A DNA stretch of 64,000 nucleotides from a phage, in assembly GCA_023802575.1 (NCBI GenBank), contig GCA_023802575.1_3947.1; one strand, 5' to 3'. The translations under genes and the position numbers were made by a program. Below are positions 23,975-60,441 of this stretch, one piece after another. Numbering within the stretch: position 1 is the stretch's first letter; the number at the start of each line of letters is the position of its first letter. The notes beneath the pieces are model-generated. The model was not told the origin of the DNA. It saw only the letters and a list, made by a program, of their open reading frames with translations, and did not search any database.

Positions 23975-24050
23975 TGGAGAATCCGAAGGGACTCGAACCC
24001 TTATAAACCTGTTTTGCAGACAGGCACATAGCCATTTCTGTCACGGATTC
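23975..24050 (-). tRNA. tRNA-Cys (GCA)
   Basis: Minus-strand cloverleaf read by eye: encoded CCA (TGG on plus), T-loop TTCGAGT, anticodon loop CTGCAAA. Confidence 0.65.
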
Positions 24051-24054
24051 AAAT

Positions 24055-24147
24055 TGGAGGAAGATACCAGACTTGAACTGGTACACCGATTTCTCAGCTA
24101 CTGGCAGTTTAGCAAACTGCTCCCTTACCTTTTAGGGTTAATCTTCC
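24055..24147 (-). tRNA. tRNA-Ser (GCT), class II
   Basis: Perfect anticodon stem GCAGT/ACTGC with loop TTGCTAA; long variable arm; T-loop TTCAAGT; CCA encoded. Confidence 0.6.
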
Positions 24148-24148
24148 G

Positions 24149-24883
24149 TTATTTCCGTAATGCGTTCTTCATTTCTGGTGTTGCAATAGTATCAATTACA
24201 CCAGTTTTACAAGAATCATCAAACCAGTCTGGTAAGATACCTGCTAAGAACCCATTGATATTCGTTTTAAGGTACTCTGCAATAAGAGCAGCTTCTTCTT
24301 CAATCATCTGCACAACTTCATCTGCATAAGCTGTAATCTTCGAAATACCTTCATTAATCTTACTAACAGCTTGGTTAGCTAAATCAGAAATAGTATCAAG
24401 ACCTTTGTCAATAGCGTCTTGTAAGTCACTTAATACATCATTAACACCGTCTAGTGCACTGTTAATCGTATCAATAGCTTTTTGACCATACTCTGTAGCA
24501 ACACCCATAATACCACTAAATGGTGTACAACCGACTTGTTCACCTGCTGCACCCATAACATTAGAATAACCTTTTGCTACCTGCATACGTGATGAAAACT
24601 CATCAATGGACTTTTGACCGTAATCCGTCAGCGTTTTGGTAGTTGATGTAGTGCTTGTCAGACTCGTTGTAAAGCTGTTAAGCAGAACTGTTGTAAGTCC
24701 AGCAGCAACAAGTTTATCTTTTATTGTAGGGTCTGTTACAGAGCTAATAGAGCTTACAAGTGATGTAGAGGCAGCTACGGTTCCACCGAGAACTGCTGCA
24801 CCAGTAATAAGGGGATTAGAGAACCCTTTACCAGTTTTTAAGAGATTAAAAATCTCCTTACCTTGTTCTGTCATCTCTTTCAT
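24149..24883 (-). CDS. Hypothetical protein embedded in tRNA array
   Basis: About 244 aa from ATG at 24883 (MKEMTEQGK), with AAAGGTG upstream; the longer start in the ORF track overlaps tRNA-Phe. Confidence 0.5.
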   Translation of the reverse strand: MKEMTEQGKEIFNLLKTGKGFSNPLITGAAVLGGTVAASTSLVSSISSVTDPTIKDKLVAAGLTTVLLNSFTTSLTSTTSTTKTLTDYGQKSIDEFSSRMQVAKGYSNVMGAAGEQVGCTPFSGIMGVATEYGQKAIDTINSALDGVNDVLSDLQDAIDKGLDTISDLANQAVSKINEGISKITAYADEVVQMIEEEAALIAEYLKTNINGFLAGILPDWFDDSCKTGVIDTIATPEMKNALRK

Positions 24884-24899
24884 TAAGCACCTTTGAAAT

Positions 24900-24975
24900 T
24901 GGTAGTCCAGTGGGATTTGAACCCTCTTCTCATGTTTTTCAGACACGCGCTTTAACCATATAAGCTACTTGGACT
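24900..24975 (-). tRNA. tRNA-Phe (GAA)
   Basis: U8-A9, D-stem GCTT/AAGC, anticodon loop CTGAAAA, T-loop TTCAAAT, CCA encoded. Confidence 0.7.
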
Positions 24976-24981
24976 ATAAAT

Positions 24982-25056
24982 TGGGGTGACCTACGGGATT
25001 TGAACCCGTATAGACCATGTTCACAGCATGGGTCATTACCATTTATGATAAGGCCA
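24982..25056 (-). tRNA. tRNA-His (GTG)
   Basis: Anticodon stem CCATG/CATGG, loop CTGTGAA; T-loop TTCAAAT. Confidence 0.65.
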
Positions 25057-25088
25057 CATTTAAGGACTCTCGTAAGAACCCTTAGAAG

Positions 25089-25164
25089 TGGCAGCGGCAT
25101 AAGGATTTGAACCTTAATAAGACAGCTTCAGAGACTGCTGCATTACCAGTTATGCTATACCGCT
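25089..25164 (-). tRNA. tRNA-Gln (CTG)
   Basis: D-stem GCAT/ATGC, anticodon loop CTCTGAA, T-loop TTCAAAT. Confidence 0.55.
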
Positions 25165-25169
25165 AAATT

Positions 25170-25248
25170 TGGTACTCCATATCGGATTCGAACCGATACA
25201 TAACACAGATTTTAAGTCTGGCCTCTCTGCCAATTGGAGTAATGGAGC
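25170..25248 (-). tRNA. tRNA, anticodon unresolved (possibly TAA)
   Basis: Clear acceptor and T-arm (ATCGG TTCGAAT CCGAT) with CCA; anticodon arm could not be folded unambiguously by hand. Confidence 0.45.
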
Positions 25249-25250
25249 AT

Positions 25251-25326
25251 TGGCGGGGGATGTTGGAATTGAACCAACTTCTTCGATTTCAAAGACCGAG
25301 GTTTTAACCTTGTAAACTAATCCCCT
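25251..25326 (-). tRNA. tRNA-Gln (TTG)
   Basis: D-stem GTTT/AAAC, anticodon stem TCGGT/ATCGA, loop CTTTGAA; 1-72 mismatch. Confidence 0.55.
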
Positions 25327-25334
25327 TTAAATCT

Positions 25335-25892
25335 TTACTTTCTTAGTGGATGAATAAAGAATGCCAACATAACTCTTTCCCTTGAGAATGCTCTTTCTTC
25401 TGGGACAACACTTTTTAGCTTCCACCCAATATAAATTCTCCAGTAAAACTGTTTACCAAAGATTTTAATTGATGGGATAAAAGCGAATAATCCCCAAGCA
25501 TTGCTGTTCCACATTAGGAGATAACCTGTCTGATTATCTTCAGGGTTAGAACTTACGTTGATATTACCTTTCCACTTGGTAACATCTTTTACATCTCTTC
25601 CTAATACATGGTAAGAGAAGTTATAAGCTTTGTTTCTCCAGAGCCAACCGACTCTCTGCATATAGACACCAAGCTTACCAATCCATCTAATATTAGCCCA
25701 TCTCTTAACGTGACCTTCATCACCATCAATTGGGTTGTCATAAGTTTCCATCCATCTAAATCCGAAAGGTAAGTGTCCTTTCTTCTCACTGTAAAATGGA
25801 ACTACAAAAGGTGCTAAGATAACTGCTAAGATTGCTGCAAATGGTTCTAACAAAGCTAAGAAAATCCATGAAGCATACTTCAAATATCTCAT
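25335..25892 (-). CDS. Membrane protein embedded in tRNA array
   Basis: 185 aa; N-terminal hydrophobic segment WIFLALLEPFAAILAVILAPFVV; Trp-rich. Confidence 0.5.
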   Translation of the reverse strand: MRYLKYASWIFLALLEPFAAILAVILAPFVVPFYSEKKGHLPFGFRWMETYDNPIDGDEGHVKRWANIRWIGKLGVYMQRVGWLWRNKAYNFSYHVLGRDVKDVTKWKGNINVSSNPEDNQTGYLLMWNSNAWGLFAFIPSIKIFGKQFYWRIYIGWKLKSVVPEERAFSRERVMLAFFIHPLRK

Positions 25893-25911
25893 CTAAATAG
25901 CCTCTTTAAAT

Positions 25912-25987
25912 TGGCGCAGGATAAGGGATTCGAACCCCTATTAACAGCTTCGTAGACTGTTGCTCTATCCATTTGAACTAATCCTGC
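25912..25987 (-). tRNA. tRNA-Arg (ACG)
   Basis: Anticodon stem ACAGT/GCTGT, loop CTACGAA; T-loop TTCGAAT; CCA encoded. Confidence 0.7.
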
Positions 25988-25992
25988 AAAAT

Positions 25993-26070
25993 TGGTGTTC
26001 CAAGACGGATTCGAACCGTCACTAGTACAAGGTTTGAGCTTGCATCCTCTGCCAATTGGGATACTGGAAC
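25993..26070 (-). tRNA. tRNA, anticodon tentatively CAA
   Basis: Anticodon stem GCAAG/CTTGT with loop CTCAAAC; no long variable arm, so a Leu identity is unconfirmed. Confidence 0.45.
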
Positions 26071-26071
26071 A

Positions 26072-26146
26072 TGGTACTCACTAAAGGACTTGAACCTTTT
26101 TCTTCATCTTGTAAGGGTGATGTTTTACCATATAAACTAAGCGAGT
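26072..26146 (-). tRNA. tRNA-Val (TAC)
   Basis: U8-A9, D-stem GTTT/AAAC with GG in loop, anticodon loop CTTACAA, T-loop TTCAAGT. Confidence 0.65.
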
Positions 26147-26243
26147 GTGAGAAGAGGTCTGGAGTTGTGCCGCTAACTCAACTCCGTGGAATTTGTTACG
26201 GTCTTCAGTTGACTCAAAGCGGTCTTTCACTTGACCTCTGAAT

Positions 26244-26319
26244 TGGTGCTCCCACAAGGATTCGAACCCTGATAAGTTGCTTACAAGGCAACCGTAATAG
26301 CCAATTATACGATAGGAGC
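26244..26319 (-). tRNA. tRNA-Thr (TGT)
   Basis: Anticodon stem GTTGC/GCAAC, loop CTTGTAA; T-loop TTCGAAT. Confidence 0.7.
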
Positions 26320-26326
26320 ATTAATT

Positions 26327-26401
26327 TGGAGCATCCAGAGGGAATCGAACCCTCAACCTCAGTTTGGAAGACTGTAATTTTCCCGTTTAAACTATGGATG
26401 C
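26327..26401 (-). tRNA. tRNA-Gly (TCC)
   Basis: Anticodon loop CTTCCAA; T-stem GAGGG/CCCTC, loop TTCGATT. Confidence 0.65.
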
Positions 26402-26407
26402 ACTAAT

Positions 26408-26483
26408 TGGTGGAGTCACTGAGAATTGAACTCAGTTCCCAAGTTTGCAAAACTCGAATTTTAACCATATAAACTATGACCCC
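26408..26483 (-). tRNA. tRNA-Ala (TGC)
   Basis: Anticodon stem CGAGT/ACTTG, loop TTTGCAA; T-stem CTGAG/CTCAG. Confidence 0.65.
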
Positions 26484-26489
26484 ATTGTT

Positions 26490-26565
26490 TGGTACAGGTG
26501 GAGGGAATTGAACCCATCGTCTTACTGATTAAGAGTCAGCCGCATAACCATTTTGCTACACCTGC
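26490..26565 (-). tRNA. tRNA-Lys (CTT)
   Basis: Anticodon stem GCTGA/TCAGT, loop CTCTTAA; body closely similar to the TTT isoacceptor at 27789. Confidence 0.55.
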
Positions 26566-26572
26566 ATTAATT

Positions 26573-26650
26573 TGGTAGGAGACAAGGGATTCGAACCCTC
26601 AAACACCAACTTCTAAGGATGGTAGGTTTACCAATTACCGTCAATCTCCC
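26573..26650 (-). tRNA. tRNA, anticodon tentatively TAG
   Basis: T-arm GAGGG TTCGAAT CCCTT and acceptor clear; anticodon arm fold ambiguous, candidate loop CTTAGAA. Confidence 0.4.
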
Positions 26651-26904
26651 ATTAAATCTTTTTAGAGAACTTCTAAGAACCTAAGCAACAAGGTTCCACA
26701 ACAAGCGACTAATAACCTTAGAAGCCCTCTAAAAAGACCTAAATAGGTCTTTGCATAGTCTTGTTTAATCCGGTGACTAGAACCTTTGGAGAGCTTGATA
26801 TTATCTCTTCTCCGTGACACCTACTAGGTGCTTTGACAGTGTACGACAATACACGAGGGATAAACCGACAATGCGAACAAGCATGGACGGAGTAAATCTT
26901 ATTA

Positions 26905-26994
26905 GGCGGTAAGTAAAGGAGTCGAACCCTCACCGTATCTCTACAGTGGCAACAGTTTTCAAGACTGTTTGGCTGCCATTAGCCGCTACCTACC
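26905..26994 (-). tRNA. tRNA-Ser (TGA), class II
   Basis: Perfect anticodon stem ACAGT/ACTGT with loop CTTGAAA; long variable arm; terminal CC encoded without A. Confidence 0.6.
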
Positions 26995-27007
26995 CCTAAT
27001 AAGATTT

Positions 27008-27090
27008 TGGCATGGGACGGAGGAGTTGAACCCCTTTGAAACGGTTTTGGAGGCCGTTGCTCATGCCTTAGAGTCTTAACATCGTCCCAT
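27008..27090 (-). tRNA. tRNA-Trp (CCA), atypical length
   Basis: Perfect 7-bp acceptor ATGGGAC/GTCCCAT, anticodon loop CTCCAAA; about 83 nt with enlarged D region. Confidence 0.5.
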
Positions 27091-27233
27091 ATTATAATTC
27101 GAAGCTTACCCTGTTATCTCAACACTGTCAAGCTTCTTCTCAGATTATTTACATGTTCTGGAAAACATGAGATACAGACCACCTCCCTACAGGAAGACCC
27201 ACTAAGGCCGTCTAAGTAATCTGCTAACTATTT

Positions 27234-27310
27234 GGTACACCCTACAGGATTCGAACCTGTAACTAACGATTTAGAAGACCGTTGCTCTATCCAATTGAAC
27301 TAAGGGTGCA
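27234..27310 (-). tRNA. tRNA-Arg (TCT)
   Basis: Anticodon stem ACGGT/ATCGT, loop CTTCTAA; D-arm GTTC AATTGGATA GAGC. Confidence 0.7.
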
Positions 27311-27555
27311 TTATCTTTAAAGACTCTCTTAGAAAGCCCTTAAAGATGCCCACCTTATTAATCATACCGTGGGCGAGTACGCCAAATTCTTTGATGAGGG
27401 ATTGGAAGACCTCACTGGTGTTTAGCCTATCAAGCTACTGCCAGAAAAACATTGTCGTTTGCATTTATTTTAAATTTGCAAAATAGACGCTACGCAACGA
27501 AAACTAAGGTTACTATAAAGTAGTCACATCTCAATGTCAACAACTTTATTGAAAT

Positions 27556-27631
27556 TGGTACTGGTAGGTGGAATCGAACCACCGATGTTCCCTTATCAGG
27601 GGAGTGTTATAACCTTCTTAACTATACCAGC
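27556..27631 (-). tRNA. tRNA-Ile (GAT)
   Basis: Anticodon loop CTGATAA; T-loop TTCGATT; CCA encoded. Confidence 0.65.
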
Positions 27632-27633
27632 AT

Positions 27634-52769: not shown

Positions 52770-55136
52770 TTAATCGTAAATTGTTGTACCTTCTGGAACA
52801 CACTTCACATCAAAGCCTAAGAACTTACTCACTTCAATAGGTGACACTTTATTCCAATCTAAATGAGAAAGCAAGAAGTTTTCTTGTTTTCTTTTTGAAA
52901 GGTAGTTTGTCACCTTAATGACCATGCGGTCACCAGCTTTCTTAATTTTCTTGTACAGCTTTGTATCATTGTCAAGGCATTCTTTCAAAGTTTGCAATCT
53001 ACTAACAGTGTAAGTGTATGCAAACGGTGCAGCAACGTATTGGATTTTACCGAACATTGCCTCTACAGCCTCTTCATTACCTTCTAGGAAGATAGTTTTG
53101 TTTGTATCCCGTGAATAGCAATAACCACGAGAAATCTTCCTATTATTGAATGTAAAGTTTCTGGCAATAATCCAGCTACTTGTAAGGTCAAGAACACCAT
53201 TCATGTAGATGCGTGTCATATACCTGTTATGATTAATCCAATGAACATCAGTTAAGCTGTCGTTCAAGAGCTTCTCATCTACTTCAATCCAGTCTTCTGG
53301 TATCTTTTTCCAATTTGCTTTTCGGAAAACATAAACTGTCTTTCCAATAACATTAGCAACTGACTTAGCTACATCTTCTGGAGATGAGCAAAAACATCTA
53401 CCATCAACTGTGTCACCAACTGCCTTAATATAAAGCTGAGGTTCTTCAATTGTGTCTAAGTCTTCTGACACCTCTTTGTATGAAGCTACAGATTCTGCTG
53501 GAACAGCTTTCCATAGTTTTACAACACCTCTCACAGCCTCTTTACGCTGATAATGATGCTCCTTATCAGACATTTTCACAATCTTTAACAAGCTTTTATC
53601 AAGTTTGTGTAGATTGATTAAATCATCTAACTCTTTTTCAGTCGAGAATACAAACACAATACCATTGTATCTGTGGAACAGGCCTGACTCGTTAGCGTAG
53701 TCTCGACATGCACCACGCAAGATTTGATTTCGTCCTACAGTCTTCTCAGTGCCATTTTTATTGCGACGGTCATTAATCACGAACAAAAACTGTTCAATTT
53801 GGCTTTTACGCATTGCACCAAAGATATTGAACATACTTGCCTCTTGAGTGTAGGAAAGTGCTGTTGCACGAATCTTACTCTCTAAAGAGTTGAACTTGAC
53901 ATAAGCAACTGGGTCATAAAGGTAATCTACTTTAGGGATGTTGTTTCCGTTCCTATCAACCTTAATATTACCTTTACCGTCACGCTCATAAATGACTGAG
54001 CCGTCTTCTGCGTAGATAATCCCGCGACGAATGTTTAGCAACTCTTCTTCCAGAGAATCAAGCTTAACGCCTCCCCACTCTAGCTTTGGACACACAGCAT
54101 TAAACATTTCTCGTGAGTTCAAACGCAACTCAGCATAAGCCTGTGCAGCATCCATGAGTGTGGGCTGATTGTTAATCTTTTTGATAACATCCTTTGTAAT
54201 GGCTTCAGTTATCTTTTTAGTAGCCTCAATGATAACATTTTTTGTCGTGTCATTCATCTGCAATGCTTCACGAGAAGCTGCAATAGCAACTGAACCAATA
54301 GGCATGTAGATGTTTACAAGGTCTACGCTCCTACGGAAAAACTCTGGCAATACTTTGAAGAAATCATCGCCAAGTAATGCTTCCATATTAACAGGGTAGG
54401 CAATGTTACCCATCACCACATTAAACTCTGTCCTGTTATCACTAGAACGCCAGCTGTGCTTATGAATCATGGCATCATAAACACCTTCTTCACGGGCAAT
54501 GACGTTCATATCTGCTAATACATCGTTGTACTCAATATTACTTTCTGGTTTTACAGTGAAGTATGAGTACACATTCCCAGCTTCTTCAAAGAACTTTGAG
54601 ATACGGTGGTCAGCAACTGCCACACGTACAGCTAAACCATTAGGTTCTTTTGTTGGGTTAGTTGTCAGCTTAGTTACTTGAGGGATACCATTCTCAAGAT
54701 AAACAGAGTACTTATTAACAACACCGTCAACATAACTAGATACTGTGAATGACTGAGCAATTGCAAATGGTGACTTTGAGCCGATACCCATTGCACCAAT
54801 GTAGTCATTAGAGTCGTTCTTCGTAGAAGCTCCATAGTTTAGGTACAGACTCATAACTTTATCATGAGTCAATCCAGTTCCAAAATCACGAACTTCGAAG
54901 TAAGGCTCAAAACGAGTAGGTAAATGCACATGGAATGGGATGTTCTCTTTTCCAGCTTCTTTCTGAGCATCCACTGCGTTACATGACAGTTCACGAATCA
55001 CTGCCCTTTCTTTAAAGGTGTATACACCAGAACTCAAAAGGCTGAACATCTCAGGTGTCATTGTAATCTGTGCTTGAGACGTCTCTAAAGAAGTTGAACT
55101 CTTAATCACTTCTGCGTGGTCATTTACCATGCGCAT
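52770..55136 (-). CDS. rIIA: rIIA-like protein with N-terminal GHKL-type ATPase domain
   Basis: 788 aa; N-box-like ELSCNAVDA and G-box-like DFGTGL...GAMGIGSKS; upstream partner of rIIB-like gene. Confidence 0.65.
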   Translation of the reverse strand: MRMVNDHAEVIKSSTSLETSQAQITMTPEMFSLLSSGVYTFKERAVIRELSCNAVDAQKEAGKENIPFHVHLPTRFEPYFEVRDFGTGLTHDKVMSLYLNYGASTKNDSNDYIGAMGIGSKSPFAIAQSFTVSSYVDGVVNKYSVYLENGIPQVTKLTTNPTKEPNGLAVRVAVADHRISKFFEEAGNVYSYFTVKPESNIEYNDVLADMNVIAREEGVYDAMIHKHSWRSSDNRTEFNVVMGNIAYPVNMEALLGDDFFKVLPEFFRRSVDLVNIYMPIGSVAIAASREALQMNDTTKNVIIEATKKITEAITKDVIKKINNQPTLMDAAQAYAELRLNSREMFNAVCPKLEWGGVKLDSLEEELLNIRRGIIYAEDGSVIYERDGKGNIKVDRNGNNIPKVDYLYDPVAYVKFNSLESKIRATALSYTQEASMFNIFGAMRKSQIEQFLFVINDRRNKNGTEKTVGRNQILRGACRDYANESGLFHRYNGIVFVFSTEKELDDLINLHKLDKSLLKIVKMSDKEHHYQRKEAVRGVVKLWKAVPAESVASYKEVSEDLDTIEEPQLYIKAVGDTVDGRCFCSSPEDVAKSVANVIGKTVYVFRKANWKKIPEDWIEVDEKLLNDSLTDVHWINHNRYMTRIYMNGVLDLTSSWIIARNFTFNNRKISRGYCYSRDTNKTIFLEGNEEAVEAMFGKIQYVAAPFAYTYTVSRLQTLKECLDNDTKLYKKIKKAGDRMVIKVTNYLSKRKQENFLLSHLDWNKVSPIEVSKFLGFDVKCVPEGTTIYD

Positions 55137-55164
55137 AATACTTTCCTCTTAGTTTACTGTTAAA

Positions 55165-55341
55165 TCACTTATTAAACATTTTACCAGAACCGCCACACAT
55201 AGGGCAACAACCTGCTCTTGTATAACCTTCCCCATTACAGAAGTCACATTTTTTGTGTTCTGCATAGTACTTGCAAAGAAGGTAAACGAACACTGCTACA
55301 CTACCAAGTGACAGTAAAATTTCTATCCAATATGCTTGCAT
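55165..55341 (-). CDS. Small membrane-anchored zinc-ribbon protein (not in ORF track, under 60 aa)
   Basis: 58 aa read from minus strand: MQAYWIEILLSLGSVAVFVYLLCKYYAEHKKCDFCNGEGYTRAGCCPMCGGSGKMFNK. Confidence 0.4.
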   Translation of the reverse strand: MQAYWIEILLSLGSVAVFVYLLCKYYAEHKKCDFCNGEGYTRAGCCPMCGGSGKMFNK

Positions 55342-55658
55342 GACTCACCTCTCATATTTTTGTAAAGGATAAAGCTTCTGTCATGAACGATACTTGTAGA
55401 TACTGCAAAGTTACTTTCAAGCATCTGTTTGTTTGGATTGTAGAAGCTTTCTTTAAACTCGTCAAGTGCAAACTGGTGATGTTGTGGAAGACCTTTTACA
55501 CAAACCTTTATTGTGATTGCTGCTGCAACCTTTCCAGTCAGTTCTTCTTTAGCTGCTACTAAAATTTTGTTGAGGAACTTATGGCCATCTTCAGGCTTCT
55601 TGATGTTCTCCCAACGTTCTTCTAAGATAATGTTGATGTTCATTTCTTTGATTTTCAT
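55323..55658 (-). CDS. Hypothetical protein
   Basis: 111 aa. Confidence 0.5.
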   Translation of the reverse strand: MKIKEMNINIILEERWENIKKPEDGHKFLNKILVAAKEELTGKVAAAITIKVCVKGLPQHHQFALDEFKESFYNPNKQMLESNFAVSTSIVHDRSFILYKNMRGESCKHIG

Positions 55659-55675
55659 AGTCTTCTCCAGAAATT

Positions 55676-55697
55676 AAAAAGGCTCCCGTAGGAGCCT
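55676..55697 (-). terminator. Rho-independent terminator after NAMPT-like gene
   Basis: GGCTCC-tacg-GGAGCC hairpin with T5 on minus strand. Confidence 0.6.
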
Positions 55698-55711
55698 CTT
55701 ATCATATACTT

Positions 55712-57493
55712 TTAAAGCTGCTTGTCAATATTATTTCGAATATCGCCAAGAGTTGTGTAGCCAAACTGCTCAGAGTCACTAAAGACTAAACGTAAAGCAC
55801 AAGCTGGATGTTCAAGTGCATCTGCAAAGCTCTGGAATCCATAGCCATCTACAGCTTTCAATTTATCACCATCCCACATAGGCGCTACACCACCAAAGGC
55901 AGACTTCTTCACACCACTATCTGTTTTAGGGTCTTTTGCAAGCATAATCTCCTTACCACCAATGCTTGCAAGAGTTGCTTTGACAGCAAATGCAAAGGTG
56001 TCACGAGTCATGTACTGGTAAGTGTAAGAGCCTACACCAAACACTACGTTAGAGCTTGCAAAACCCATTTCATACAAACGCTTCAATATTTCGTTTGCAC
56101 GTTCCAACGTGATAGAGTCACCATAAATAAGTCCGATGTGCTCATCCAGTACTTTAAAACCTTTGGAGTTGATAGTCCCTCCGAAGATGTTATACAGGGT
56201 CTTAATAGCTCCATCAATCTCTGCTACAGGACGTGTTACAACGTTTGCAGAACCAACCATATAAGCATTCTTCAGCAGTACTGTATCAGCAACTTCAAAG
56301 TCTTCTCGGTCAACAACCATTTCGTAGCCTTCTGACAGTAGCCATCCAGCAATACCATAGTTGATGTTTTCAAGCTTCATGTTCAGAACAGATTTCAGCA
56401 TTGTATCACTAGCTTCCAGCTTGCTAAGATGTTCATAATAAGCCTTCTTAGCACATTCTAAGTGGATTGCTTTATAACCTGTGACAATATGCACAGGGTC
56501 TCCAGAGTCAGGACGAATTACCAGCTTGCCGTCACGTTCCATAATCTCTTTACGGAGTTCTGGCAGTATCACTGATACAGTTCTCCAGAAGTTATAAGTA
56601 TCTGAAACAATACTTGCAATACCCGTTGGGTAAGTTTCTGTTAAGAAACGACGGAAGGTTTGTAACTCACCTTTAAAGCGTCTTTCTTCTTCAATCAATT
56701 CGTTACCACCTTCCCAAGCAATGTTTGCACACATTACAGAGTGCTCAGTGGCTGGTACAGAGCTACCAATATCAGAGACTGGGTAAGACTGTCCGTAGAT
56801 GCGTTTAGCTGTATATACGGCAGGGAAGCTATCAGTTCCTTTAAAGCTGGTCAAGTGGCCTACAGCATTAAATGCGTCATCAGTAAAGCCGGACATACCA
56901 CGCATAGCAAAGTCATGGCACTGATAAGGCAAATGCAAGTCGTTATCACAAGTAAGGTCAGCCCACTTCTTACAGATACGTTTGTAGTGCAATGCAATAG
57001 TTGCAATGGTACAAGCCTTCCAAATCTCAGCAGAGAAAGCATCTTCCAGATAACCTGCTACCCAATGGAAACCTGAAACAGTGTTCTGGAAAACAATCAT
57101 TGGGACACGCATAGGGACAACTGTGCCTTCTTCTACAGCGTATACTTCAACTGGTAGATAACCTAAGTCGTGAAGTGCTTCCCAATGCTCTCGACCGATA
57201 GCATCTTTACCAAGAACACCATTCATGACTTCTAAGATTTCGTCAATTGTTTCTTTTTTATCACGTTCAAAGAAAGTGGCATTCCAGTGGTCTATCAAGT
57301 AATCTTTAACAAAACGTTGAATACCAAAAGCCGCTACACCGTCAATTGCTAAAGGGCTGTTAAACCATTTATCACTACGTGGTGTCAGGTTGAACATCAA
57401 GTACTCTGTTGCGCTAGGATACTGGTAAACATGACCAGATTTGTAAGCATCTGCATTTAAACCTGCTGGTACTGCATAAAGTGATTTAGTCAT
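55712..57493 (-). CDS. Nicotinamide phosphoribosyltransferase-family protein (NadV/Namat-like)
   Basis: 593 aa; N-terminal NADAYKSGHVYQYP matches NAMPT signature (human TDSYKVTHYKQYPP); later SSVPATEHSV matches VPAAEHS. Confidence 0.8.
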   Translation of the reverse strand: MTKSLYAVPAGLNADAYKSGHVYQYPSATEYLMFNLTPRSDKWFNSPLAIDGVAAFGIQRFVKDYLIDHWNATFFERDKKETIDEILEVMNGVLGKDAIGREHWEALHDLGYLPVEVYAVEEGTVVPMRVPMIVFQNTVSGFHWVAGYLEDAFSAEIWKACTIATIALHYKRICKKWADLTCDNDLHLPYQCHDFAMRGMSGFTDDAFNAVGHLTSFKGTDSFPAVYTAKRIYGQSYPVSDIGSSVPATEHSVMCANIAWEGGNELIEEERRFKGELQTFRRFLTETYPTGIASIVSDTYNFWRTVSVILPELRKEIMERDGKLVIRPDSGDPVHIVTGYKAIHLECAKKAYYEHLSKLEASDTMLKSVLNMKLENINYGIAGWLLSEGYEMVVDREDFEVADTVLLKNAYMVGSANVVTRPVAEIDGAIKTLYNIFGGTINSKGFKVLDEHIGLIYGDSITLERANEILKRLYEMGFASSNVVFGVGSYTYQYMTRDTFAFAVKATLASIGGKEIMLAKDPKTDSGVKKSAFGGVAPMWDGDKLKAVDGYGFQSFADALEHPACALRLVFSDSEQFGYTTLGDIRNNIDKQL

Positions 57494-57509
57494 CTTTTAA
57501 TCTCTCTTA

Positions 57510-57531
57510 AAATGGGGCTTGGAAGCCCCTA
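57510..57531 (-). other. RNA hairpin between the two NAD-pathway genes
   Basis: GGGGCTTCCAAGCCCC followed by ATTTTAA on minus strand. Confidence 0.35.
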
Positions 57532-57538
57532 TAAAGTT

Positions 57539-58435
57539 TTAATCAAGGTTTGCTACAGTAACTTGGCTATAATGTGTTAAGCCACGGTCTTTAGCTTCCC
57601 CTAAAGAGTTTGTAGTGTAGATATGGTCAATACCATTGTCAAGAAGGTTTTCAACATCTTTAGAGAAGATACCATGTGTTACATAGAGTTCCACTCGTTT
57701 TGCACCTGCTTCACGAAGATGTTTAGCTGCTTCTATGAAGGTTCGTCCTCCATCACAAATATCATCCAGAATCATGACGGTTTTATCTGTCAAATCAACA
57801 TCGTCAAGGATTCGCATACCAGTGATTTCACCAGTCTTGAGGTTGCGTACTTTAGACATTGTGATATATGGTTTATCCACCTCTTTAGCGGTTTCTGCAA
57901 CCTTCTTAGCAGCACCTGCATCTGGGGCCACTAAGTAATCAACCAGTGGGTCATTTGCATAGTGGACTGCAATCTCCTTTTGAGGAATACTCTGGAAGCA
58001 GTTAAACAGGTTATCTGGAACGTAACTGTGAGGGTCAACTGCACAGACTGCACCAAACCCCATTGCATTAACCTGTTTAGCAAAAACCTTCAAAGCTGCT
58101 GCATCGCCTTTAAACATGTGACGGTCATATCGTGCATTTGGTAAGTAGTAAAAGATGACAGTCTTTAAAGCATAATCATGAGGAATTAAATCATCAATTG
58201 CTTCTTTAGCAAGTGCTACAGCAAACAATGTGTCTTTATCATAACCTTTTACAATCATAATCACATTGTTGATGGATGATGCAGCATAAGCAGTAAAATC
58301 AACAAACTCTGGTGAAAAGTGTCCACCAATCTCACCAGAAGGAAATTGGATGATGTTAAACTCTTCTTCATGAGTTCCTTTAGTTGGTGAATGAACTGTA
58401 ACACGTATAGATGTTTTCATAATTTTCTCTCTCAA
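57539..58435 (-). CDS. Ribose-phosphate pyrophosphokinase-family protein (Prs/Adps-like)
   Basis: 298 aa; PRPP-binding loop VMILDDICDGGRTF; adjacent to NAMPT-like gene. Confidence 0.7.
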   Translation of the reverse strand: MREKIMKTSIRVTVHSPTKGTHEEEFNIIQFPSGEIGGHFSPEFVDFTAYAASSINNVIMIVKGYDKDTLFAVALAKEAIDDLIPHDYALKTVIFYYLPNARYDRHMFKGDAAALKVFAKQVNAMGFGAVCAVDPHSYVPDNLFNCFQSIPQKEIAVHYANDPLVDYLVAPDAGAAKKVAETAKEVDKPYITMSKVRNLKTGEITGMRILDDVDLTDKTVMILDDICDGGRTFIEAAKHLREAGAKRVELYVTHGIFSKDVENLLDNGIDHIYTTNSLGEAKDRGLTHYSQVTVANLD

Positions 58436-58710
58436 TCAAAAGTTACGTTAGTTACTGCCATTGCAGACTTGCATTTCACAGGGTCTACAACGTGATAAAG
58501 TACACTACAGTTTCCTGTACTATCTGGCACAGGCTTTACCCATTGCTGTTTGACAGTTGGTTCTCCTAAGTCTTTGTAAGAACCATCTGTATAATTATTT
58601 ACCATCTCAAGTGCAATTGGCTCTGGGACATGACCACGTATCATGTACATTTCACAACCATTACCACCTTCACTGACTAATGATAAAATCTCCCACTTTT
58701 CTTTAGCCAT
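58432..58710 (-). CDS. Hypothetical protein
   Basis: 92 aa. Confidence 0.45.
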   Translation of the reverse strand: MAKEKWEILSLVSEGGNGCEMYMIRGHVPEPIALEMVNNYTDGSYKDLGEPTVKQQWVKPVPDSTGNCSVLYHVVDPVKCKSAMAVTNVTFD

Positions 58711-59218
58711 TGTAAGTTGCCCTATAAACTATCTCGAACTTCAACAGGAGAGATATTGCCAAATCTGTATAGTTGTTGTCAAGCACATCTGGCATATTAT
58801 TTTTGATATATCTCTCTTGCTCTTCATAGGTCATCTTAGGGGTACTTAAAAGACTATCTCCTTGCTTCTGGTTATCAGCTTTAGTCTGAATAAACCAGTT
58901 TGTACAGTGATGTTCACCACCTTTTGTAACAGGTTTGTGGTGGCCTAATGTGAAGGATTGACTGCCTGTGTATCTGCAAAGTTTATTGAGTACTGTAATG
59001 GTGTTCTTCACAACAAAACATTCATACAGGTTGTCTATGGTGTAGTGTGGGGAATATCGAAATAATGCTCTTTCACGAGTACTCTCACGATTCCAGAGAA
59101 TCATGTGATTGGAGTTGGAAGGGTCGTATTGGTGGGAGTCAATGAACTCTTGACGTTCCTCAAAACTGAGTCTTAACACTGACATTGCAGCAGAACGTTT
59201 CAGATTTGACAGATACAT
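58703..59218 (-). CDS. HNH endonuclease-like protein (tentative)
   Basis: 171 aa; LGHHKPVTKGGEHHCTNWFIQTKADNQKQGD resembles H-N-N HNH core. Confidence 0.4.
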   Translation of the reverse strand: MYLSNLKRSAAMSVLRLSFEERQEFIDSHQYDPSNSNHMILWNRESTRERALFRYSPHYTIDNLYECFVVKNTITVLNKLCRYTGSQSFTLGHHKPVTKGGEHHCTNWFIQTKADNQKQGDSLLSTPKMTYEEQERYIKNNMPDVLDNNYTDLAISLLLKFEIVYRATYNG

Positions 59219-59231
59219 ATTATCTCCAAAA

Positions 59232-59257
59232 TAAAAAGGGAACCTTTACAGTTCCCT
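59232..59257 (-). terminator. Rho-independent terminator
   Basis: GGGAAC-tgtaaag-GTTCCC hairpin with T5 on minus strand. Confidence 0.55.
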
Positions 59258-59269
59258 TATAGTATCTGC

Positions 59270-59590
59270 TTACTGAGCTACTTTCAAGATTCTTGTGAAT
59301 GGAATTTCACTTTCTTCCATTAACTCTTTAGTTTCTTTGGTAACTTTCACAAAGTTATCTAGGCAGATAATCTTCTTATCTTTCTTGCTATAGGTTAATT
59401 TAACCTTTTCAATATCTTTCTCAGAGCTTTTCTCTTCATTGAAGAGTTTTACAGCCTCTTTGAATGGGAGATATGAGCCATCATTATCACTAATGAATCC
59501 TGTACCACAATAGTAGGAGTTATGCTCTCTAGCCATAAACTGGCACAGTAAGAAAATCTGTAATTTACGAGTGTTATAAACTTTGCTCAT
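59270..59590 (-). CDS. Hypothetical protein
   Basis: 106 aa. Confidence 0.45.
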   Translation of the reverse strand: MSKVYNTRKLQIFLLCQFMAREHNSYYCGTGFISDNDGSYLPFKEAVKLFNEEKSSEKDIEKVKLTYSKKDKKIICLDNFVKVTKETKELMEESEIPFTRILKVAQ

Positions 59591-59592
59591 GA

Positions 59593-59859
59593 TTATTTAG
59601 CCTTCTTATTACGTTTACGGTTACGAGCTTTCTTAGCTGCTCGTTTAATAGCTGCTGCACCAGACGGACGGTGGGCTTGTTTCTTACCACCTTTGCCACG
59701 GCCTACATAGATGTAAGGCTGCTGTTCAATTTGGCTTGTAAGAACCTGTGCAACCGCTGAAGCATCTACACCGACCTGCTTTCCAGTCATAGAAACAATT
59801 GCTGCTGCTTTTGCCAGTGCCTTCAAGAATCCGGCTTTCATATTACCTAAAATTCCCAT
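59593..59859 (-). CDS. Small basic protein
   Basis: 88 aa; highly basic C-terminus. Confidence 0.45.
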   Translation of the reverse strand: MGILGNMKAGFLKALAKAAAIVSMTGKQVGVDASAVAQVLTSQIEQQPYIYVGRGKGGKKQAHRPSGAAAIKRAAKKARNRKRNKKAK

Positions 59860-59955
59860 TTTTAGTCTCTCTCATTAAAGTTTAATGCAGAACTTATGAA
59901 GTTCTTCTTCAGTGATACCAATTGGAGTTATACCTTAATCCATTTGCCAGAATAA

Positions 59956-60441
59956 TCATTCTGCTCGCCATTGGCAATCACCTTGCCACCCATACTCTTT
60001 TCTCCAGAGGTTTTGGTTATCAGAACCACGATATGGTTTAACTGTTGGTTTAGATGAATCATACTTACCATCAATCACCACGTCAACATATTTCATCACA
60101 TCAAGGTGAATTTTTTCATGTAACTGAAAACCTGTCCAGAGCCAGATAGATTTTTCTGGGTAAACGGTTTTAATACGTTTGCATATGTTGGTAACCTCTT
60201 GAATGTTTCTATCATCCAGAGGTTCTCCACCAAGTATTGACAGCCCACTGATGGCATTATCATCCATTAACTTAATGATGCCGTAGAGGTTTGCATAAGT
60301 AAACACTTTACCGGCATTAAACTTCCAAGACTCCCTGTTAAAGCAGCCTTCACAGTGATGCTTACAACCAGCTACGAAGAGGCTTACACGAACCCCTTCA
60401 CCATTAGCTGTGTCAAATGGTCGAATCTCCATGTAATTCAT
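59956..60441 (-). CDS. nrdG: Anaerobic ribonucleotide reductase activating protein (radical SAM)
   Basis: 161 aa; CKHHCEGC (Cx3Cx2C) cluster motif; overall resemblance to T4 NrdG; same strand as nrdD. Confidence 0.85.
   Translation of the reverse strand: MNYMEIRPFDTANGEGVRVSLFVAGCKHHCEGCFNRESWKFNAGKVFTYANLYGIIKLMDDNAISGLSILGGEPLDDRNIQEVTNICKRIKTVYPEKSIWLWTGFQLHEKIHLDVMKYVDVVIDGKYDSSKPTVKPYRGSDNQNLWRKEYGWQGDCQWRAE

Follow-up and report, generated by a model that had tools for sequence, protein, structure and literature searches.

The 64,000-nucleotide stretch of phage DNA analysed here (NCBI GenBank assembly GCA_023802575.1, contig GCA_023802575.1_3947.1; hereafter the window) carries two adjacent genes on its minus strand, which encode a protein resembling ribose-phosphate pyrophosphokinase (Prs) and a protein resembling nicotinamide phosphoribosyltransferase (NAMPT). 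The Prs-like gene is located transcriptionally upstream, and a spacer of 45 nt separates the two. An earlier note, made from the sequence alone, had pointed out this adjacent and co-oriented pair and had suggested that it forms a NAD+ reconstitution module of the NARP1 type, in which NAD+ is rebuilt from ADP-ribose and nicotinamide. Here, we evaluate this suggestion.

The two genes correspond to minus-strand open reading frames (ORFs) of 593 aa (55712..57493) and 298 aa (57539..58435). As the earlier note had stated, the longer ORF carries the NAMPT signature, with DAYKSGHVYQYP at aa 15 and VPATEHS at aa 246, and the upstream ORF contains the loop that binds phosphoribosyl pyrophosphate (PRPP), represented by the string VMILDDICDGGRTF at aa 220. 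Both ORFs match PHROG families (phrog_448 'nicotinamide phosphoribosyl transferase', E=7.6e-201, and phrog_619 'ribose-phosphate pyrophosphokinase', E=8.7e-97) as well as Pfam domains (NAPRTase, E=1.7e-34, in the 593-aa ORF; Pribosyltran/Pribosyl_synth, ~1e-10 to 1e-11, in the 298-aa ORF). These matches are far beyond chance, and both ORFs are real genes. Plus-strand ORFs within the two genes (e.g. 55808..56335, 175 aa) are antisense to coding sequence that is strongly conserved.

The 298-aa ORF is present as described, but the gene itself is shorter. The ORF opens at a TTG (58435), and an ATG five codons inward (58420), which would give a protein of 293 aa, is preceded by GAGAGAG. The counterpart in phage Bas63 (BASEL phage JohannRWettstein, MZ501086) and the closest full-length database homologues are annotated at 293-294 aa. 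Because of the GAGAGAG and these homologue lengths, we place the gene at 57539..58420, and the ATG at 58420 is almost certainly its true start. Using the names of their Bas63 counterparts, the two genes are:

57539..58420, minus strand: adps, Prs-like, 293 aa; ATG with GAGAGAG ribosome-binding site; 78% identity to Bas63_0079
55712..57493, minus strand: namat, NAMPT-like, 593 aa; 98% identity to Bas63_0080, equal length

A 4.3-kb query around the locus matched 259 phage records, nearly all of which are Felixounavirus of Escherichia, Salmonella and Shigella. The closest record is Escherichia phage fjerdesal, with 95.7% nucleotide identity. The locus is flanked by rIIA and nrdG, which fits a FelixO1-like myovirus, and judged by its sequence the window belongs to a Felixounavirus, a FelixO1-like coliphage. 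The window and Bas63 agree in gene order, which runs from nrdG through small genes, a 171-aa gene, a 92-aa gene, adps and namat to rIIA. Window Namat is identical to Bas63_0080 at 580 of 593 positions (98%), gapless and of the same length, and window Adps is identical to Bas63_0079 at 229 of 293 positions (78%). Genus, flanking genes, two insertions in Namat and the stem of an intercistronic hairpin are likewise common to both phages. They differ in that Bas63 has another allele in the 5' two-thirds of adps and carries the gene bas63_0081.

In public records of these phages, the pair is labelled 'ribose-phosphate pyrophosphokinase' and 'nicotinamide phosphoribosyltransferase', implying salvage via nicotinamide mononucleotide (NMN). 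The NARP1 module, to which the window locus can be compared, is already known, and the study by Osterman et al. that described it reportedly appeared later in Nature, in 2024. NARP1 was defined by deleting bas63_0079-0080 in Bas63, itself a Felixounavirus; the deletion phage (delta-79-80) plates ~20-fold worse on SIR2-HerA cells, and rescue of Bas63 from NAD+-depleting defence is independent of host NadR/PncC (bioRxiv 10.1101/2024.02.11.579819). ADP-ribose pyrophosphate (ADPR-PP) was seen only in wild-type Bas63 infection of defence-carrying cells. Purified Adps of the Bacillus phage SPbetaL1 converts ADP-ribose (ADPR) and ATP into ADPR-PP and gives no product in a Prs-type assay, and SPbetaL1 Namat forms NAD+ from ADPR-PP and nicotinamide, with a preference for ADPR-PP over PRPP (10.1101/2024.02.11.579819). 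The enzymology has been demonstrated for the enzymes of SPbetaL1, P. foliorum and DyoEdafos. For 97% of Adps-clade genes, a Namat gene is found within ten genes (10.1101/2024.02.11.579819), and in the window adps and namat are direct, co-oriented neighbours. The adps and namat genes of fjerdesal are listed in the supplementary tables of Osterman et al., the Adps with the Namat-neighbour flag 'Yes' and the Namat as 'Adps-associated'. Fjerdesal and window Adps show 1 difference over the ~90 residues compared and represent the same adps allele.

Taken together, we propose that the locus is the core two-gene NARP1 operon of Felixounavirus, orthologous to bas63_0079-0080, and we put the probability of this reading at roughly 0.93. 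Being orthologous to the type example, the window locus does not represent a new system. Both genes are present and intact in the window, they stand in the order of their orthologues, and their catalytic and clamp residues (see below) are conserved. The NARP1-type module suggested earlier is thus borne out by the orthology with Bas63, by synteny, by the clamp motifs and by the prior cataloguing of fjerdesal.

By analogy with the orthologues, the window genes would carry out two enzymatic reactions and confer an anti-defence phenotype. During infection, a host NADase (SIR2-HerA/Nezha, type I Thoeris, DSR, SEFIR and similar) would split NAD+ into ADP-ribose and nicotinamide. Adps would then transfer pyrophosphate from ATP to the free ribose of ADP-ribose, yielding ADPR-PP, and Namat would swap the pyrophosphate of ADPR-PP for nicotinamide, restoring NAD+ directly. 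Such a route would need neither an NMN intermediate nor an NMN adenylyltransferase (NMNAT) nor a host salvage enzyme.

Namat is distinguished from NAMPT by an adenine 'selectivity clamp', which consists of a helix motif and a loop that provides an extra stacking residue (PMC12774641, 2026). The clamp helix follows the consensus GS-X-Phi1-X-Phi2-X-Phi3-TRD, in which X is aromatic. The third residue of the clamp loop is Arg, Lys or Tyr, and in the case of Lys or Tyr it is the fourth residue that stacks the adenine, 'e.g. Bas63 Namat' (PMC12774641). Both elements can be located in window Namat:

56000..56032, minus strand: selectivity-clamp helix motif (SCH) GSYTYQYMTRD, aa 488-498; the translation fits the published consensus
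57365..57376, minus strand: selectivity-clamp loop (SCL) S40-D41-K42-W43; K42 is aligned with SPbetaL1 R40, and the loop is the same as in Bas63

Lys42 of the window takes the place of SPbetaL1 Arg40, and the alignment identifies Trp43 as the predicted adenine-stacking residue. As a NAMPT control we used NadV of Citrobacter phage Miller, which has no Prs-like neighbour and reads GGGLLQEVTRD at the clamp site, like mammalian NAMPT. Aeromonas phage CC2 had been considered as a NAMPT-only control and was dropped in favour of Miller NadV, as a Prs-like gene lies nearby.

The remainder of the protein is in line with this assignment. In SPbetaL1 Namat numbering, the NAMPT-like catalytic core is formed by Phe189, Arg192, Asp215, the catalytic His, Arg306 and Asp308. 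Window Namat retains D15, Y17, F195, R198, D221, H251 (in ATEHS), R327, D329, G458-D459 and R497-D498, of which F195, D221 and R327 correspond to the mutationally validated F189, D215 and R306 of SPbetaL1. The residues that contact NAD+ in the SPbetaL1 Namat crystal structure are all conserved or conservatively replaced. In a sequence search of the PDB, SPbetaL1 Namat (9w5w/9w5x) ranks first (E ~5e-128, 431 bits), followed by Haemophilus ducreyi NadV (352 bits) and human NAMPT (~140 bits). An AlphaFold2 model of window Namat, built from 25 homologues, has a mean pLDDT of 92.3. When this model was searched with Foldseek, both Namat crystal structures came out on top (TMt 0.94), with H. ducreyi NadV and mammalian NAMPTs behind. 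SPbetaL1 and the window share the two genes and their order, the NAD+-contact and catalytic residues, the SCH, the equivalent of the Adps residue K162 and the fold, at ~43% identity for Namat and 36% for Adps.

Window Adps scores 479 bits with Bas63 Adps in blast comparisons, 139 bits with its Aeromonas phage CC2 counterpart, 100 bits with SPbetaL1 Adps and 62 bits with E. coli Prs. All NCBIfam Prs equivalogs remain far under their cut-offs (the best, PRK00934, at 104.8 vs 296 bits; another at 92 vs 297 bits), and the only Prs model that window Adps passes is the broad subfamily model TIGR01251 (124.5 vs 113). A Pfam scan gave no match to PF13793, the N-terminal Pribosyltran_N domain, in Adps. 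The class I Prs of E. coli (b1207) has in common with window Adps the PRT-type fold family, RxDR, the DPH histidine, the KxR loop and the DD-x-x-D-x-G-x-T loop. However, identity is 29% over 195 aa, window Adps is 22 aa shorter and lacks the C-terminal helix, and the substrate of its orthologues is ADP-ribose. The conserved elements in Adps are RxDR, H131, D219-D220 and the catalytic KxR loop, in which K190/R192 (S-K-V-R) are aligned with H-K-Q-R of SPbetaL1. K190 is the equivalent of the catalytic lysines SPbetaL1 K162 and B. subtilis Prs K197; K162 is the catalytic-loop Lys that Osterman et al. mutated (bioRxiv 10.1101/2024.02.11.579819). Judged by scores, identities, equivalog cut-offs and the fjerdesal listing, which served for want of a published Adps sequence signature, window Adps groups with the phage Adps clade and not with the cellular Prs clade. 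Profile searches, which the earlier note had proposed as a check, came out as follows: the Prs equivalogs failed, Pfam NAPRTase matched, and the comparison with Adps and Namat favours these two families.

These data bear on plain nucleotide salvage, which the earlier note had kept as its alternative. Here, the Prs-like protein would make PRPP from ribose-5-phosphate, the NAMPT-like protein would make NMN, and host NadR or PncC/NadD would complete NAD+, raising the NAD+ supply in infection. Salvage matches the Pfam, PHROG, NCBIfam and GenBank annotations of the pair. It is opposed by the biochemistry of the orthologues, in that SPbetaL1 Adps yielded no product in a Prs-type assay and Namat gave only NAD+ when ADPR-PP and PRPP were both offered. 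In addition, window Namat carries the adenine clamp, a feature missing from true NAMPTs, and the scores of the Prs-like protein are far too low for the curated Prs equivalogs. Given the clamp motif and what genetics and biochemistry have shown for the orthologues, we reject salvage, which we regard as highly improbable.

A further possibility is a NARP2-type pathway like that of vibriophage KVP40, in which PRPP, nicotinamide and ATP are converted into NAD+ by NAMPT together with a phage NMNAT. NARP2 serves the same purpose as NARP1, the restoration of NAD+, and the NAMPT fold and catalytic core are common to window Namat, NARP2 and true NAMPT/NadV proteins (human NAMPT, H. ducreyi NadV 9ke8, Miller NadV). 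The presence of a NAMPT-family gene would thus be accounted for, and ~23 kb of the phage genome lie beyond the window that was searched. In contrast to window Namat, however, these enzymes are devoid of the adenine clamp (GGGLLQ..TRD vs GSYTYQYMTRD in the window), work on PRPP, yield NMN and depend on an NMNAT. The earlier note had seen no NMNAT, and this holds within the 64-kb window: a phmmer search with E. coli NadD and NadR against its six-frame segments of >=50 aa gave a best E=0.49, and the (H/T)xGH nucleotidyltransferase motif occurs in none of its six frames. No NMNAT is annotated in the inspected syntenic stretch of Bas63 either. Moreover, the window NAMPT-like protein groups with Adps-associated Namat and not with the Adps-less clade, and adps directly adjoins namat. 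With the NadD/NadR-seeded search and the motif scan of the window both empty, we reject NARP2 and give it next to no credence.

NARP1 also occurs with accessory genes. NARP1-AP (Adps-Adpp-Namat, Vibrio phage Gary) and RyDEP-NARP1 (mycobacteriophage DyoEdafos) have the core Adps and Namat in common with the window, but carry a Macro- or RyR-domain gene, which is found neither in nor beside the window operon. A Pfam scan detected no gene for a Macro-domain ADPR-1P phosphatase (Adpp) or a RyR-domain glycosidase (PF02026) among the neighbouring ORFs of 92, 171 and 111 aa. By its gene content, the window locus is the core two-gene version and not a NARP1-AP or RyDEP-extended NARP1.

Two small minus-strand genes lie 5' of adps, one of 92 aa (58432..58710, phrog_4726) and one of 171 aa (58703..59218, phrog_3500), whose product has a weak HNH-like match. 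Between the end of the 92-aa gene and the adps ATG there are 11 nt. A terminator-like hairpin (59258..59236) is located 5' of the two genes, which may share a transcript with NARP1.

The 92-aa gene, the 171-aa gene or an insertion in Namat could add an activity to the pathway, comparable to Adpp in NARP1-AP or to RyDEP. Known operons do recruit accessories (the Macro-domain protein Adpp in 15%, and also RyDEP), the 92-aa gene abuts adps, and the Namat insertion is predicted to be confidently folded without a detectable structural relative. Yet the 92- and 171-aa neighbours have no Macro, RyR or other Pfam domain, the Kolesnikvirus operon contains nothing equivalent to the 92-aa protein, the Bas63 phenotype arose from deleting genes 79-80 alone, and SPbetaL1 Namat is fully active without the insertion. 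Such an extended version seems improbable to us. As a conserved NARP1 partner, the 92-aa gene was discarded, since the gene that takes its place in Erwinia phage Fifi318 does not resemble it.

Several points weigh against the assignment of the window locus to core NARP1. The activities and the anti-defence role of the window genes are predicted from orthologues. The in vitro work on Adps used the SPbetaL1 enzyme (36% identity in the aligned region), and Bas63 Adps was never purified. The window adps allele differs from the tested Bas63 allele by 22% in protein, mostly within the N-terminal 180 residues. Namat also makes NMN from PRPP in vitro (PMC12774641; 10.1101/2024.02.11.579819), and a side contribution of Namat to ordinary salvage is possible. 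Finally, the NMNAT search covered 64 kb of a ~87-kb genome, the remaining ~23 kb of which lie outside the window.

On this evidence, the annotation of the pair changes from NMN salvage to an anti-defence NAD+ reconstitution pathway. For phage therapy and host-range work, it predicts resistance of such a Felixounavirus to those defences in which NAD+ is split into ADP-ribose and nicotinamide. Precedents for such resistance are SIR2-HerA for Bas63 and type I Thoeris for the NARP1 of other phages (10.1101/2024.02.11.579819). Conversely, because the window NARP1 comes without the phosphatase Adpp, such a phage is predicted to stay sensitive to NAD+ phosphorolysis of the aRES type. The locus raises no new question on NARP1 itself; the loose ends are an insertion subdomain of Namat and the dimorphism of adps alleles.

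With 593 aa, window Namat is about 100 aa longer than SPbetaL1 Namat and bacterial homologues (491-497 aa), as noted before. This surplus is explained by two insertions. The first comprises ~17 residues after HSVMCANI (aa 259-275). The second is larger:

56213..56476, minus strand: Namat insertion subdomain, aa ~340-427, net ~72 aa, between the RPDSGDP strand and the GAIKTLYNIFGG helix

Both insertions are found in the ~590-610-aa Namat proteins of Ounavirinae, i.e. of Felixounavirus, Suspvirus, Kolesnikvirus and Yersinia and Pectobacterium phages, among which identity drops to 46%. Bas63 Namat has both, whereas neither is found in SPbetaL1 Namat or in the bacterial homologues of 496 aa. Two features that the earlier note had regarded as odd, the extra length and the intercistronic hairpin, are both present in the type example. 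Other phage lineages carry unrelated insertions at the site of the ~72-aa insertion, which makes this position an insertion hot spot. In the predicted structure, the ~72 residues form a confidently folded subdomain. A structure search with this predicted fold detected no structural relative, and the subdomain is not discussed in either of the two NARP1 papers (10.1101/2024.02.11.579819; PMC12774641). It might add a non-catalytic function, such as ADP-ribose-gated regulation, docking of Adps or shielding from a host counter-measure, and the adps alleles might separately reflect differing host pressures, although we consider these ideas doubtful.

The divergence between the window and Bas63 is concentrated in one segment:

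~57900..58470, no strand assigned: mosaic block covering the 5' two-thirds of adps; sliding nucleotide identity to Bas63 of 67-77%, compared with 90-97% in the flanks

Over codons 1-180, Adps shares 68% amino acid identity with Bas63, and 95% over the C-terminal third. Among Felixounavirus records, adps identity is bimodal (~155 records at >=90%, ~91 at 60-80%), unlike Namat, for which 208 records show an identity of >=95%. The window has the commoner adps allele and Bas63, the phage that was tested, the other. For codons 1-180, dN/dS against Bas63 is 0.17, with dS saturated at 1.3. These values indicate that the alleles are old and functional; the sequences point to purifying selection and to exchange by recombination. 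Positive or diversifying selection on the divergent block was rejected on these values. In Bas63, namat is directly followed on its 3' side by bas63_0081, a small hypothetical gene of 345 nt; the window has no such gene at the corresponding position (~55661). This position lies between namat and the 111-aa ORF at 55323..55658, and SUSP2 likewise has no gene of the size of bas63_0081 there.

The earlier note had further described a stable hairpin between the two genes. It can be traced together with signals around namat:

57514..57529, minus strand: intercistronic hairpin GGGGCTT-CC-AAGCCCC (GGGGCTTCCAAGCCCC) with a 6-7-bp GC stem, then ATTTT
57501..57507, minus strand: namat ribosome-binding site AGAGAGA, 3' of the intercistronic hairpin
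55677..55700, minus strand: terminator-like hairpin just 3' of namat, with a 10-bp stem containing 5 GC pairs, then TTTTTAATTT; found by consensus scan, a pattern match only

In its 66-nt context, the intercistronic hairpin folds with -13.6 kcal/mol (z = -2.4 vs shuffles), which supports the earlier description. Its stem is invariant in the window, Bas63 and the more distant SUSP2, with loops that vary. It is missing in the Kolesnikvirus Fifi318, where the gap between adps and namat is 14 nt. In SPbetaL1, the two genes overlap, leaving neither spacer nor hairpin, unlike the window. The terminator scan did not call the intercistronic hairpin, the stem of which is followed by only 4 T. A known RNA element was rejected as an explanation, as all matches in an Rfam E-value scan of 54500..60000 fell far below the gathering scores. 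The Adps:Namat ratio may be set by the hairpin, acting either as a leaky attenuator or through mRNA stability or processing. The terminator-like hairpin at 55677..55700 is stronger than the intercistronic one and, from its pattern, probably marks where the transcription unit ends.

Two sigma-70-like sequences on the minus strand were found by consensus match only. One lies inside the 3' end of adps (57614..57642, TTGACA-17-TACACT, 10/12) and could drive namat alone. The other is located at the 3' end of namat, before the downstream small genes (55701..55728, TTGACA-16-TATGAT, 11/12).

Beyond Felixounavirus, genes for Namat-like proteins (496 aa, with the clamp GSYTYQYNTRD) and for Adps-like proteins (~285 aa) are found on the chromosomes of Klebsiella, Cronobacter, Kosakonia, Phytobacter and Superficieibacter, which fits the 'bacterial NARP1' reported for Paenibacillus. 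In the T4-like Aeromonas phage CC2 (L008 1410..5512), six small genes (~1.8 kb) lie between the Prs-like and NAMPT-like genes. The Namat clamp motif is degenerate in CC2 (GSWGFLKNSSRD), and this phage may have a looser or divergent NARP1 arrangement. Elsewhere in the window, 26 tRNA genes are clustered on the minus strand at 23975..28986; they cover most amino acids, as is typical for FelixO1-like phages.

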